A DNA stretch of 64,000 nt, from the NCBI RefSeq assembly GCF_056712565.1, contig NZ_CM160072.1. One strand, written 5' to 3'. Position 1 is the first letter of the stretch. Every line of letters begins with the position of its first letter. Under the pieces are notes generated by a model, which ran no database searches, had not been told where the DNA came from, and saw nothing but the letters and a program-made list of their open reading frames with translations. This document shows, piece by piece, positions 22,219 to 52,744 of the stretch. The translations under genes and the position numbers were made by a program.

Positions 22219-22246
22219 TCGTCAAGTTTGATTTCACAAGTGATAT

Positions 22247-22348
<102 letters not shown>

Positions 22349-22405
22349 GAAGCAACGTACTCGATATTAGCAATTTGGCGGCAACCCAAAGTTGCCGATT
22401 AATGA

Positions 22406-31677: not shown

Positions 31678-33174
31678 TTAATCCTCTCGGGCAAAAAGTG
31701 CCTCTATAAAGTCGTCCGCCTTAAACGGACGCAAATCCTCAATACGTTCGCCGACACCAATGTAGCGGATAGGGATACCAAACTGGTCAGCCACCGAGAA
31801 AATTACCCCGCCTTTCGCCGTGCCGTCCAGTTTCGTTAGCGTGATGCCGGTTAAGCCAACGGCTTCGTGGAACAGTTTGGCCTGGCTTACCCCATTCTGC
31901 CCGGTGCTGGCATCAATAGTCAGCATAACTTCATGCGGAGCTTCAACGTCGAGTTTCTTCATCACGCGGACGATTTTCTTCAACTCTTCCATCAGGTGCG
32001 ATTTGTTCTGCAGGCGTCCGGCGGTATCGGCAATCAGGACGTCGATGTTACGCGCTTTAGCGGCCTGAATGGCGTCGAAGATAACAGAAGCGGAATCCGC
32101 ACCGGTATGCTGGGCAATCACCGGAATATTGTTGCGCTGCCCCCAGACCTGAAGCTGTTCAACCGCTGCCGCACGGAAAGTATCGCCTGCCGCCAGCATC
32201 ACCGATTTACCCTGCTGCTCAAACTGACGCGCCAGCTTACCAATCGTCGTGGTTTTACCCACACCGTTGACGCCCACCATCAGGATCACGAACGGCGTTT
32301 TACCTTCAACATTCAGCGGCTCATCGACTTTCGCCAGAATCTCGCCCATCTCTTCTTTCAGCAGGCCATAGAGCGCCTCGGCATCACGAAGCTGCTTGCG
32401 GGATGCGCCTTCCGTCAGATTGGTGATAATTTTACGAGTGGTTTCCACGCCCACATCGGCGATCAACAGCTGTTCTTCCAGCTCTTCAAACAGATCATCG
32501 TCGATTTTTTTACCGCGGAACAGGCTGATAAATCCGGAACCGAGATTTTCTTTGGTTTTTAACAGGCTGCGTTTCAGGCGCGCGAAGAAACCTTCTTTGG
32601 TCGGTTTTTCCTGCTCCTGAGCGATTTCTTCCACCGGCTGCTCTTCTTCTGCCGGAGAAACCACCATTACCGCCTCTTCTGCCACTTCGGCAGCCAGCGC
32701 CTGTGCCTCCGGCTCTTCGTCGGTGATTTCTTCTTTAGCCGCTTCTTCTTCCGCCGCTTCGACAATCTCTACGGTTTCCGCTTCGGCCTGCCACTCTTCT
32801 GGCGAAACCGCTTCGGCGTTGACGTCTTCCGGCAACGGCAGTTCTTCACGTTCGATAGCCACTGGCTCCGGCGTTTCTTCTACGACCGATTCCGGCTGTG
32901 CAACGACTTCCGCTTCAGGCTGCGCTTTTTCACTTTCAGCAACCTGTTCAGTAACTTCCACAACGTTGGCAGCAAAAGTTCCCGCCTCGGCTTCAGTATG
33001 CGCCTGCGGCTGCTCTTCAACGGCGTGTTCAGAAGCCTTCACAGGCTCTTGCGCCTGAACGATTTCTTCTACAACTGGTTGTTCATTCTGAACTTCTGTC
33101 TCTTTTTCCGGGGTCTGCTCTTTTTGACCAAAGCCCAGCCAGGAAAAAAAGCCACGTTTTTTTTCTTTCGCCAT
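31678..33174 (-). CDS. ftsY: Signal recognition particle receptor
   Basis: 498 aa; acidic repetitive N-terminal domain plus C-terminal SRP GTPase domain (GVNGVGKTTT, DTAGR). Confidence 0.95.
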   Translation of the reverse strand: MAKEKKRGFFSWLGFGQKEQTPEKETEVQNEQPVVEEIVQAQEPVKASEHAVEEQPQAHTEAEAGTFAANVVEVTEQVAESEKAQPEAEVVAQPESVVEETPEPVAIEREELPLPEDVNAEAVSPEEWQAEAETVEIVEAAEEEAAKEEITDEEPEAQALAAEVAEEAVMVVSPAEEEQPVEEIAQEQEKPTKEGFFARLKRSLLKTKENLGSGFISLFRGKKIDDDLFEELEEQLLIADVGVETTRKIITNLTEGASRKQLRDAEALYGLLKEEMGEILAKVDEPLNVEGKTPFVILMVGVNGVGKTTTIGKLARQFEQQGKSVMLAAGDTFRAAAVEQLQVWGQRNNIPVIAQHTGADSASVIFDAIQAAKARNIDVLIADTAGRLQNKSHLMEELKKIVRVMKKLDVEAPHEVMLTIDASTGQNGVSQAKLFHEAVGLTGITLTKLDGTAKGGVIFSVADQFGIPIRYIGVGERIEDLRPFKADDFIEALFARED

Positions 33175-33323
33175 TTGCGACTACACTCCTCGCTGTTGCT
33201 TCATGGCACAGCGTTAACGCTATGTACATAGCAGCTAAAAAAATGATGAAATAGTCTATCACTTAACTTAATTCACATCACCGCCTGCAAGTATGTGTTA
33301 TCTGGCGGATTGAGCAATTTATC

Positions 33324-33920
33324 ATGAAAAAACCGAATCATTCCGGCAGCGGCCAAATCCGCATTATTGGCGGGCAGTGGCGAGGCCGTAAACTCCCGGT
33401 TCCTGATAGTCCAGGTCTGCGCCCCACCACCGACCGCGTACGCGAAACGTTGTTTAACTGGCTGGCTCCGGTCATTGTTGACGCCCAATGTCTGGATTGC
33501 TTCGCCGGGAGCGGCGCGCTGGGGCTGGAAGCGTTATCGCGCTACGCTGCGGGGGCCACGTTGATTGAGATGGATCGTGCGGTTTCTCAGCAGTTAATTA
33601 AGAATCTGGCGACACTAAAAGCAGGCAATGCACGCGTGGTGAACAGCAACGCGATGTCATTCCTGGCGCAAAAAGGCACACCGCATAATATCGTGTTTGT
33701 CGATCCACCGTTCCGCCGTGGCTTGTTAGAAGAGACGATAAATTTACTGGAAGATAACGGCTGGCTGGCTGACGAAGCCCTGATTTATGTCGAAAGCGAA
33801 GTCGAAAACGGTCTGCCCACTGTTCCGGCAAACTGGTCATTACATCGGGAAAAAGTGGCGGGTCAGGTGGCTTATCGGCTGTATCAACGCGAAGCACAAG
33901 GAGAAAGTGATGCTGATTAA
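33324..33920 (+). CDS. rsmD: 16S rRNA m2G966 methyltransferase
   Basis: 198 aa; SAM-methyltransferase motifs (LDCFAGSGALGLEA, VFVDPPF). Confidence 0.9.
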   Translation: MKKPNHSGSGQIRIIGGQWRGRKLPVPDSPGLRPTTDRVRETLFNWLAPVIVDAQCLDCFAGSGALGLEALSRYAAGATLIEMDRAVSQQLIKNLATLKAGNARVVNSNAMSFLAQKGTPHNIVFVDPPFRRGLLEETINLLEDNGWLADEALIYVESEVENGLPTVPANWSLHREKVAGQVAYRLYQREAQGESDAD

Positions 33921-34179
33921 TATTGGTCGTTTGTTAATGCTCTGTGTTTGGGGATTTTTAATCCTCAACCTGGTGCATCCCTTCCCACGCCCGCTGAATA
34001 TTTTCGTTAACGTGGCGCTGATTTTTACCGTGCTGATGCATGGTATGCAGCTGGCGCTATTGAAATCCACTTTACCGAAAGATGGCCCGCAGATGACCAC
34101 CGCCGAAAAGGTGCGGATTTTCCTTTTCGGCGTGTTTGAACTGCTGGTCTGGCAGAAGAAATTTAAAGTTAAAAAATAA
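33910..34179 (+). CDS. yhhL: Small inner membrane protein (DUF1145)
   Basis: Internal ATG gives 89 aa beginning MLINIGRLLML, overlapping the rsmD stop by 11 nt. The ORF track start at 33787 lies inside rsmD. Confidence 0.75.
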   Translation: MLINIGRLLMLCVWGFLILNLVHPFPRPLNIFVNVALIFTVLMHGMQLALLKSTLPKDGPQMTTAEKVRIFLFGVFELLVWQKKFKVKK

Positions 34180-34181
34180 CC

Positions 34182-34541
34182 TTATTGTTCGCCTACAAAG
34201 CTGACAAAGCGCGTTCCTTTATAGCTCAGCGTACCTTTATCACCCACTGTCAGGGCGTGGTACTGCTGGGCGTCGAGGCGAAACGTCTGCTCCATTCCTC
34301 CGCTTTGCGGTTTGAAGCTTGCCTCATAGCGCATACTGGTGCCTGCCGGAGTCACTTCCTGCTGGCGCGAACGGCGATCGTTAATCGGTTTTTCCCGCTT
34401 GTTGCTCACCACCACCAGCTTTTGCTGGAGCGGTGCCATATCATTATCAGCTTTTTCCCGTCGTTGTTGCATAAAACGAAACGATGCGGCGACGATGATT
34501 AAGCCAATGATAACAATAAAGAAAAGAGGTGGTTTACTCAT
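34182..34541 (-). CDS. yhhM: Membrane-anchored DUF2500 protein
   Basis: 119 aa with one N-terminal TM segment; matches YhhM. Confidence 0.8.
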   Translation of the reverse strand: MSKPPLFFIVIIGLIIVAASFRFMQQRREKADNDMAPLQQKLVVVSNKREKPINDRRSRQQEVTPAGTSMRYEASFKPQSGGMEQTFRLDAQQYHALTVGDKGTLSYKGTRFVSFVGEQ

Positions 34542-34681: not shown

Positions 34682-35308
34682 ATGCTTTGGTCGTTTATCG
34701 CTGTCTGTCTTTCCGCATGGCTATCTGTGGATGCATCGTATCGTGGGCCAACCTGGCAACGCTGGGTGTTTAAACCGTTAACCCTTCTTCTCCTGCTGTT
34801 GCTGGCCTGGCAAGCGCCGATGTTCGACGCCATTAGCTATCTGGTGCTGGCGGGGCTGTGTGCCTCACTGCTGGGCGATACGCTAACCCTGTTGCCACGT
34901 CAACGTCTGATGTACGCCATCGGCGCGTTTTTCCTCTCGCACCTGCTGTACACCATCTATTTCGCCAGTCAGATGACGCTCTCCTTCTTCTGGCCTCTGC
35001 CGTTGGTGCTGCTGGTTCTGGGCGCGCTGTTACTGGCGATTATCTGGACGCGTCTGGAAGAGTATCGTTGGCCTATCTGCACGTTTATCGGCATGACGCT
35101 GGTGATGGTGTGGCTGGCAGGTGAACTGTGGTTCTTCCGTCCGACCGCTCCGGCGCTCTCTGCGTTTGTCGGCGCTTCGTTGCTGTTTATCAGTAACTTT
35201 GTCTGGCTGGGTAGTCACTATCGCCGACGCTTCCGTGCGGATAACGCCATTGCCGCGGCCTGCTACTTTGCTGGTCACTTCCTCATCGTCCGCTCGCTGT
35301 ATCTCTGA
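34682..35308 (+). CDS. yhhN: YhhN-family (TMEM86-like) integral membrane protein
   Basis: 208-aa polytopic membrane ORF; matches YhhN. Confidence 0.85.
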
Positions 35309-51243: not shown

Positions 51244-52744
51244 TAACAGCGCAGCTATCGTTATCGATATTGGCACCACCAATTGCAAAGTCACCTGCTT
51301 TTCCTGCCTGGACGCAACGACGTTGGGCGCGCATAAATTCGTGACGGCAAAACAGATCTCCCCACAGGGCAATGTCGATTTCGATATCGACGCCCTCTGG
51401 CAGGAGGTCCGCCAGGCGATAGCGCAACTGAACGCCGCTTCGCCGCTGCCAGTCAGGCGGATCAGCATTGCCAGTTTTGGCGAGTCAGGGGTGTTTCTTG
51501 ACAAACATGGCGAGATTCTGACGCCAATGCTGGCATGGTATGACCGTCGCGGTGAAGAGTATCTGGCAACGCTTAGCGAGGCAGACAGTGCGGCACTTTA
51601 TGACATTTGCGGGTTACCACTGCACAGCAATTACTCTGCCTTCAAAATGCGTTGGTTGCTGGAGCATTATCCGCTGCGCAATCGTCGCGGCCTGCGCTGG
51701 CTACATGCACCGGAAGTGCTGCTCTGGCGGCTGACTGGCGAACAGCGAACGGATATCACCTTAGCCAGCCGTACACTGTGTCTGGACGTGCGCAAAGGCG
51801 AATGGTCAGCGAAAGCGGCGGCGTTGTTACACGTTCCCTGTTCAGCATTTGCGCCATTGTTGCAGCCAGGTGAGCACGCCGGATGGGTCAGTGAGTCGCT
51901 CTGCAAAACGCTTGGGTTCTCGCAATCGGTCAGCGTGACGCTGGCCGGACATGACCATATGGTGGGTGCGCGGGCGTTGCAGATGATGCCGGGCGATATC
52001 CTTAACTCGACGGGCACCACGGAAGGCATTCTGCAACTGGATACACAACCGACGCTGGATGAACAGGCCAAACGTGACAAGCTGGCAAACGGCTGTTACT
52101 CGCTTGCCAACCAGTTCACCCTGTTTGCTTCTCTGCCCGTGGGCGGTTTCGCGCTGGAGTGGCTGCGTAACACGTTCCGGCTAACCGATGAGGAGATCGC
52201 CGTGTCGCTCAATCGTGGGTATGCGGATTACCTGGCGGGGAACTGGTCGCTCGATGACATTCCCGTTTTTATTCCGCATCTTCGCGGTTCGGGTTCGCCC
52301 TATAAAAATCGCCATACCCGAGGATTATTTTATGGGCTTGGCGATACGTTAAATATCGATATGTTAATTGCCAGCGTCTCACTGGGATTAACCATGGAAT
52401 TTGCCAACTGCTTCGCCTGTTTTAATGTGCCCGGCACCAGCGCGTTAAAAGTGATAGGTCCGGCAACCCATAATCCCCTTTGGCTGCAATTAAAGGCGGA
52501 TATTTTACAGCGTCCGGTTGAAGCAATTGCATTTAACGAGGCGGTTTCTGTCGGAGCATTATTAACCGCCGCACCGGATATTCCACCGCCGCAAGTCACC
52601 ATAGCCCAACGTTTGTTACCGAATCGGGCGAGATACCATCAATTACAGCGTTATCAGCACAAATGGAAAAGCTGGTATCAGTTGAAATTACAGCAAGAAG
52701 GCGTGATGCCATTACATCATCGGGAGGAGCACTATGTTGAGTAA
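51236..52744 (+). CDS. FGGY-family carbohydrate kinase
   Basis: 502 aa; N-terminal FGGY motif AIVIDIGTTNCKV; 8-bp overlap with the IIC gene. Confidence 0.75.
   Translation: MPDNSAAIVIDIGTTNCKVTCFSCLDATTLGAHKFVTAKQISPQGNVDFDIDALWQEVRQAIAQLNAASPLPVRRISIASFGESGVFLDKHGEILTPMLAWYDRRGEEYLATLSEADSAALYDICGLPLHSNYSAFKMRWLLEHYPLRNRRGLRWLHAPEVLLWRLTGEQRTDITLASRTLCLDVRKGEWSAKAAALLHVPCSAFAPLLQPGEHAGWVSESLCKTLGFSQSVSVTLAGHDHMVGARALQMMPGDILNSTGTTEGILQLDTQPTLDEQAKRDKLANGCYSLANQFTLFASLPVGGFALEWLRNTFRLTDEEIAVSLNRGYADYLAGNWSLDDIPVFIPHLRGSGSPYKNRHTRGLFYGLGDTLNIDMLIASVSLGLTMEFANCFACFNVPGTSALKVIGPATHNPLWLQLKADILQRPVEAIAFNEAVSVGALLTAAPDIPPPQVTIAQRLLPNRARYHQLQRYQHKWKSWYQLKLQQEGVMPLHHREEHYVE

Follow-up and report, generated by a model that had tools for sequence, protein, structure and literature searches.

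Introduction

Coupling between closely spaced bacterial genes has been reviewed by Brown and Wade (2025; PMC12548453), according to whom coupling is most effective at stop-start spacings of -4 to +3 nt, falls as overlaps become longer and is gone by -25 nt, while the overlap classes that are enriched are those of -4 and -1 nt and, less strongly, -8 nt. When five overlapping gene pairs of E. coli were tested by Huber et al. (2019; PMC6728339), four proved to be strictly coupled. Tightly spaced pairs are described by Huber et al. (2023; PMC10666635) as often encoding subunits of a complex.

A second group of described systems consists of rRNA methyltransferase genes that share an operon with the gene for a small putative membrane protein, among which Sergiev et al. 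(2012; PMC3384335) listed rlmC(rumB)-ybjO. The same authors noted that yhhL "partially overlaps" rsmD and included rsmD-yhhL among the associations worth testing; the question of co-expression of rRNA-modification and membrane protein genes was raised there and left open. Shimada et al. (2014; PMC3946193) assigned rsmD and yhhL to a single operon, with TTCACA-18-TGTTAT as its promoter. Here we describe the junction of these two genes, its variation among relatives and what it suggests about their co-expression.

Results

The rsmD-yhhL Locus

The window, by which we mean the whole 64,000-nt stretch of DNA that was analyzed, was 99.99% identical to E. coli ATCC 11775 across its 64 kb, and the rsmD-yhhL region was found in 5425 of 5426 complete E. 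coli genomes. The features referred to below are as follows, numbered from the first base of the window.

31678-33174, minus strand: ftsY
33272-33301, plus strand: TTCACA-18-TGTTAT, candidate sigma-70 promoter for rsmD-yhhL (published; located by reading)
33324-33920, plus strand: rsmD coding sequence, 198 aa, 16S rRNA m2G966 methyltransferase (ORF, Pfam, RefSeq WP_000743193.1)
33897-33899, plus strand: rsmD codon 192, CAA here and TAA in some relatives (locus comparison)
33900-33903, plus strand: Shine-Dalgarno sequence GGAG of yhhL (direct reading, column entropy)
33910-33920, plus strand: 11-nt overlap, ATGCTGATTAA (direct reading)
33910-34179, plus strand: yhhL coding sequence, 89 aa, small hydrophobic DUF1145 protein (Pfam, RefSeq WP_001295207.1)
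34182-34541, minus strand: yhhM
34682-35308, plus strand: yhhN
from 35382, plus strand: zntA

The product of rsmD matched PF03602 over residues 12-188 (E = 8.9e-64; 214.9 bits against a cutoff of 24) and PDB entry 2FPO, "methylase yhhF", across residues 1-198 (E = 2.6e-132). With the RefSeq product name in agreement, these sequence matches identify it as the characterized E. coli RsmD. YhhL is a putative membrane protein according to the literature, and no paper naming the DUF1145 family was found in the literature searched. Residues 1-58 of YhhL matched positions 1-58 of the 58-position PF06611 (DUF1145) profile, covering the whole model (E = 1.6e-26; 92.4 bits against a gathering threshold of 21). 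The AF2 model of YhhL (pLDDT 92.7) consisted of three helices at residues 2-22, 29-54 and 64-88, and no match with E < 3 was returned when this model was compared with the PDB using Foldseek. In the representative library a 3349-aa protein (P0146) with Pfam matches to DUF7738 and MerB carried 8 weak YhhL-like stretches at 24% identity, and is perhaps a hydrophobic ORF that is repetitive or was called in error.

Elsewhere in the window, inverted repeats of about 108 nt, 87% identical to each other, were observed at 16410-16516 and 22245-22351. Both are apparently intergenic, between livF and ugpB and between livJ and panM respectively, and they probably represent an intergenic repeat element already described in E. 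coli.

Geometry of the Junction

The rsmD frame ends CAA GGA GAA AGT GAT GCT GAT TAA, with the stop codon at 33918-33920, while the yhhL frame opens with ATG CTG ATT AAT at 33910, so that the 11 nt of ATGCTGATTAA are common to both genes. The yhhL frame is +1 relative to that of rsmD, as (33910-33324) mod 3 = 1, and yhhL codons M1-L2-I3-N4 contain the rsmD codons (G)AT-GCT-GAT-TAA; rsmD and yhhL are therefore, by definition, a co-directional overlapping gene pair. The GGAG at 33900-33903 lies 6 nt before the yhhL ATG, within rsmD codons G193-E194. In the program-made listing of ORFs, rsmD occupied 33324-33920 and the ORF in the yhhL frame extended over 33787-34179, with ATG 33910 internal to it. 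RefSeq/PGAP annotation of ATCC 11775 places both genes at identical coordinates with the same 11-nt overlap, and the overlap is one already annotated and published, of a common class of operon junction. The window-equivalent annotation contained 18 co-directional overlaps, nine of 4 nt, four of 1 nt, three of 8 nt and two of 11 nt, and the rsmD/yhhL overlap is therefore statistically not unusual. The second overlap of 11 nt, ATGTTGAGTAA at 52734-52744, joins the gene for an FGGY-family sugar kinase to that for an HPr-family phosphocarrier.

Position of the yhhL Start Codon

A sequence-only reading of the window had proposed that yhhL starts at the ATG at 33910, in a frame different from that of rsmD and with an overlap of 11 nt. 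This was borne out by direct reading, the RefSeq annotation, the Pfam match, the N-termini of homologues and the conservation of the ATG and Shine-Dalgarno sequence; comparative support was strong and consistent, and ATG 33910 is, from these sequence comparisons, well supported as the genuine yhhL start. A homologue search of 1.84 billion cluster representatives showed DUF1145 to be a small family, with 88 representatives at E <= 1e-3, and the full-length homologues (83-103 aa) had N-termini that, even at 26-35% identity, fell within 0-3 residues of E. coli Met1. GTDB species genomes were scanned with a closer 12-sequence alignment as seed, which confirmed 352 loci; the best 80 of these, all from Enterobacterales, were analyzed together with the E. 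coli reference. Of these 81 loci, 74 had an ATG at the homologous position, and in the remaining 7 (6 Kosakonia-type and 1 Cedecea) the ATG was displaced upstream by two codons. GGAG or a one-base variant of it (GGGG, GGAA) was found at the same distance in 74/81, and in the same Kosakonia-type and Cedecea loci the Shine-Dalgarno sequence lay a few bases further upstream.

Column entropy was calculated over 64 distinct junctions from relatives chosen for having both the ATG and the TAA. It was low at positions -10 to -7 relative to the yhhL ATG, and the positions of the overlap outside the selected ATG and TAA were nearly invariant in these relatives. Upstream of the ATG, entropy at rsmD codon positions 1, 2 and 3 was 0.84, 0.76 and 1.35, while downstream of it the values for yhhL codon positions 1, 2 and 3 were 0.53, 0.13 and 1.11; it is therefore at the ATG that the wobble periodicity leaves the rsmD frame and takes up that of yhhL. 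Residues 1-9 of YhhL (MLINxGRLL) were conserved, with N4, G6 and R7 invariant in the closer alignment A2. Among published start-site data, the supplements of TRAINSPOTTER and of Salmonella riboproteogenomics did not list yhhL, and in INRI-seq it appears only in the PNA off-target list.

Initiation elsewhere, at GTG 33907, ATG 33787 or the Met10 codon at 33937, would leave the true overlap different or absent, and could be argued from the mechanical ORF in the yhhL frame, which begins at 33787, from the position of GTG 33907, which is in frame and adjoins ATG 33910, and from the longer N-termini of some database entries (P0001, 103 aa; P0005, 136 aa). We nevertheless consider it very improbable. 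Positions -3 to -1, which a GTG start would make coding, were among the most variable of the region (entropy 1.2-1.95), and the Shine-Dalgarno spacer for this codon would be only 3 nt. As regards starts further upstream, variation before the ATG peaked at rsmD third positions, which are second positions in the yhhL frame, so that the yhhL frame is non-coding in this stretch. In-frame upstream candidates, ATG 33787 included, differed or were missing among genera, and the open stretch before the ATG ranged from 0 to 98 codons among relatives; its 42 codons in E. coli are unremarkable, since a 79-codon open run occurs elsewhere in rsmD in the same frame. The conservation of YhhL residues 1-9 also argues against a start other than ATG 33910.

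Transcription of the Locus

The published promoter TTCACA-18-TGTTAT was found by reading at 33272-33301, in the divergent ftsY/rsmD intergenic region. A simple consensus scan missed this site, and the same type of scan, which is insensitive and so a weak test, gave no promoter-like site on the plus strand within rsmD. From the literature, together with the lack of an internal promoter match, we infer co-transcription of rsmD and yhhL.

At the other end of yhhL, its stop codon (34177-34179, plus strand) and that of yhhM (34182-34184, minus strand) converge with a gap of 2 nt, and no terminator-like hairpin was found. The transcripts of these two genes must therefore overlap, and yhhL-yhhM is among the E. 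coli excludons in the ExcludonFinder paper (PMC12288877).

Overlap Length in Relatives and the C-Terminal Tail of RsmD

An overlap of 11 nt was found in 58 of the 81 loci (E. coli and the best 80 of 352), with overlaps of 17 nt in six, 7 nt in five and 1 nt in two; the remaining junctions had 0 nt (one locus), a 1-nt gap (one locus) or a gap of 10-11 nt (eight loci). Nine more distant DUF1145 lineages, sampled one by one, had gaps of 3, 9, 10, 10, 11, 17, 19 and 75 nt and, in one case, a 1-nt overlap. Conservation of the overlap across genera had been named in the sequence-only reading as a check on the junction: the ATG, the Shine-Dalgarno sequence and the adjacency of the genes were indeed kept, but the length of the overlap was labile.

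The difference between overlap and gap could be followed within one genus. Three Citrobacter loci (L013, L018 and L022) had aaaTAAggagaa, where other Citrobacter and E. coli have gcaCAAggagaa. In these three the TAA at rsmD codon 192 yields an RsmD of 191 aa, whose gene stops 10 nt short of the yhhL ATG, and a single transition between CAA and TAA at this codon thus decides whether the two genes overlap by 11 nt or lie 10 nt apart. The extra tail of E. coli RsmD amounts to seven residues, QGESDAD (Q192-D198), and lies beyond the end of the PF03602 domain at residue 188. Solved RsmD homologues other than 2FPO align to about residue 189-191, and residues 194-198 had a pLDDT < 50 and are predicted to be disordered. 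Judged from sequence and model, the tail appears to be free of constraint at the protein level. The rsmD TAA sits inside the conserved yhhL codons Ile3-Asn4 (ATT-AAY), and since these are conserved for YhhL itself while the RsmD tail would be unconstrained, the overlap can be read as a by-product.

Adjacency of rsmD and DUF1145 Genes

The DUF1145 gene immediately followed rsmD, in the same orientation, in each of the 81 Enterobacterales loci (E. coli and the best 80 of 352), and this arrangement was also observed in 9/9 distant representatives, at 26-57% identity, from lineages including Providencia, Vibrio hibernica and Celerinatantimonas diazotrophica. Other neighbours varied in the distant loci, with either a PBP1-type gene or a divergent ftsY upstream of rsmD, and yhhM, MarC, phosphatidylserine decarboxylase, a cytochrome or a beta-helix protein encoded downstream of the DUF1145 gene. 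In two low-GC lineages rsmD itself overlapped the upstream PBP1-type (Transgly/Transpeptidase) gene, by 1 nt (L085, 1874) or 17 nt (L088/L089, 1909-1925), and here rsmD lies in a cell-wall gene context rather than facing ftsY.

The pairing had earlier been described as one with no obvious functional logic. YhhL is indeed without known function, but an arbitrary pairing is contradicted by adjacency in 81/81 and 9/9 loci. DUF1145 could be a dedicated partner of RsmD, for example one that ties m2G966 formation and late 30S maturation, or RsmD itself, to the inner membrane beside the divergently encoded SRP receptor FtsY, although we regard this as decidedly unlikely. If such a partnership exists, it would be what the adjacency reflects, rather than the inheritance of a gene that has not moved. 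The observations also fit a small lineage-specific gene that originated downstream of rsmD, or was inserted there, and has since been retained in the operon. An RsmD-(G4S)6-YhhL chain was modelled with AF2 from a 30-row paired alignment, and gave a pTM of 0.59 and a linker pLDDT of about 30-46; as a single-chain test with a shallow alignment this is a weak one. Within the limits of that test, the pTM is what two parts folding independently would be expected to give, YhhL was predicted with no more confidence than alone, and the outcome leans negative.

Possible Translational Coupling

The geometry of the junction is one in which a terminating ribosome covers the yhhL Shine-Dalgarno sequence and AUG, and the short back-step required makes termination-reinitiation plausible. 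Unfolding of RNA structure by ribosomes translating rsmD, considered as a second route to coupling, was rejected: the 101-nt region 33860-33960 had a minimum free energy of -22.4 kcal/mol against a mean of -21.6 for shuffled sequences (z = -0.27), and no stable structure is predicted over the site. With a good Shine-Dalgarno sequence at optimal spacing and no local RNA structure, independent initiation at yhhL is possible too. The claim of the sequence-only reading that the overlap implies translational coupling was accordingly overstated: the geometry permits coupling, but the 6-nt Shine-Dalgarno spacing, the z-score of -0.27 and the gaps found in relatives do not make it a necessity. On balance we infer that some coupling of yhhL to rsmD by termination-reinitiation, partial in extent, has slightly better than even chances.

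A stronger proposal would be that the overlap has been selected because it makes coupling obligatory, with YhhL produced solely by ribosomes that have just completed RsmD and the stoichiometry of two cooperating proteins thereby fixed. The stop-start distance was short throughout the 81 Enterobacterales loci (-17 to +11 nt, in the best 80 of 352 plus E. coli), rsmD and the DUF1145 gene were adjacent in 90/90 loci examined, and the proposal gains further from the strict coupling of four of the five E. coli overlapping pairs tested (PMC6728339) and from the frequency of complex subunits among tightly spaced pairs (PMC10666635). Against it stand the variation of overlap length, a single-base change being enough to abolish the overlap in several genera, and the gaps of up to 19 nt in distant relatives and of 75 nt in one lineage. 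The conserved Shine-Dalgarno sequence at optimal spacing, free of structure, would allow de novo initiation, coupling declines as overlaps lengthen (PMC12548453), and no confident interface was seen in the linked RsmD-YhhL model (a weak single-chain test on a shallow alignment). Obligatory coupling is therefore unlikely.

Open Reading Frame Upstream of yhhL

In E. coli 42 codons of open yhhL frame precede the ATG, a length that is also the median across relatives. Such an opening would suit programmed +1 frameshifting in the last part of rsmD, with a membrane-anchored RsmD-YhhL fusion as its product, and in one database protein of 254 aa (P0140) part of a PF03602 domain is indeed joined to DUF1145. 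Upstream of the ATG, however, the yhhL frame showed no coding periodicity, variation there following the rsmD frame only, and the open stretch shrank to 0-8 codons in Buttiauxella-type loci, within a range of 0-98 among genera. P0140 covers profile positions 16-139 of 182, so that the final quarter of the RsmD domain is missing, and the conserved Shine-Dalgarno sequence and ATG argue for separate initiation of yhhL. A frameshift fusion is, in our view, extremely improbable.

P0140 was also considered as a true RsmD-DUF1145 fusion in its own right and was rejected; with its truncated domain it is most likely the result of an indel, a frameshift or an assembly artefact. The long open yhhL frame inside rsmD would explain how an artefact of this type can join RsmD to a complete DUF1145.

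Discussion

The rsmD/yhhL boundary is very probably a normal two-gene operon junction, a reading that includes the start at ATG 33910, selection on adjacency rather than on overlap, and possible coupling. In such a junction the promoter ahead of rsmD would transcribe both genes, and yhhL would be translated from ATG 33910 by means of the GGAG at 33900-33903 within the final codons of rsmD. A dispensable C-terminal tail of RsmD would be read past the yhhL ribosome-binding site to the first in-frame stop, which would be the TAA formed by the conserved Ile3-Asn4 codons of yhhL (ATT AAT). Selection would act on the tight juxtaposition and co-expression of the two genes, and the 11-nt overlap as such would not be selected. 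A ribosome terminating at 33918-33920 would cover the yhhL Shine-Dalgarno sequence and AUG, and could reinitiate after a short back-step.

As an example of a gene overlap the junction matters little; it confirms the database annotation, and its 11-nt type occurs twice within a 64-kb window. A useful by-product of the analysis is a strong genomic-context signal, with DUF1145 genes found behind rsmD in 90/90 loci while other neighbours change, and the pair is a clean target for asking why rRNA-modification genes are often co-expressed with membrane proteins. What novelty remains lies in the possibility that DUF1145 is a dedicated partner of RsmD.

When set beside coupled short-overlap pairs, rsmD/yhhL resembles them in having both genes on the same strand, in one operon and in different frames with a short overlap, and in placing the downstream start and Shine-Dalgarno sequence inside the end of the upstream gene. 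It differs in its spacing of -11 nt, where the canonical enriched classes are -4, -1 and, less strongly, -8 nt; a spacing of -11 is expected to couple less well than one of -4, and coupling of rsmD/yhhL may be weak or absent. Nor is a complex of the two products known.

The FGGY kinase/HPr junction of the same window has, like rsmD/yhhL, an 11-nt overlap with the TAA 8 nt after the A of the ATG, and a GGAGG lies ahead of its ATG. That pair belongs to an obvious common pathway (a sugar PTS and kinase cluster), whereas rsmD and yhhL have no known shared pathway. With rlmC(rumB)-ybjO the resemblance is one of content, in that an rRNA modification enzyme is co-expressed with an uncharacterized putative membrane protein; set beside it, the rsmD-DUF1145 pair is present in every lineage sampled. 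In many other bacteria rsmD is paired with coaD, again a second gene without an evident link to rRNA methylation. There, as with yhhL, rsmD leads a small operon but the partner gene differs, and in the DUF1145-bearing Gammaproteobacteria sampled the gene after rsmD was always DUF1145, as opposed to coaD elsewhere.
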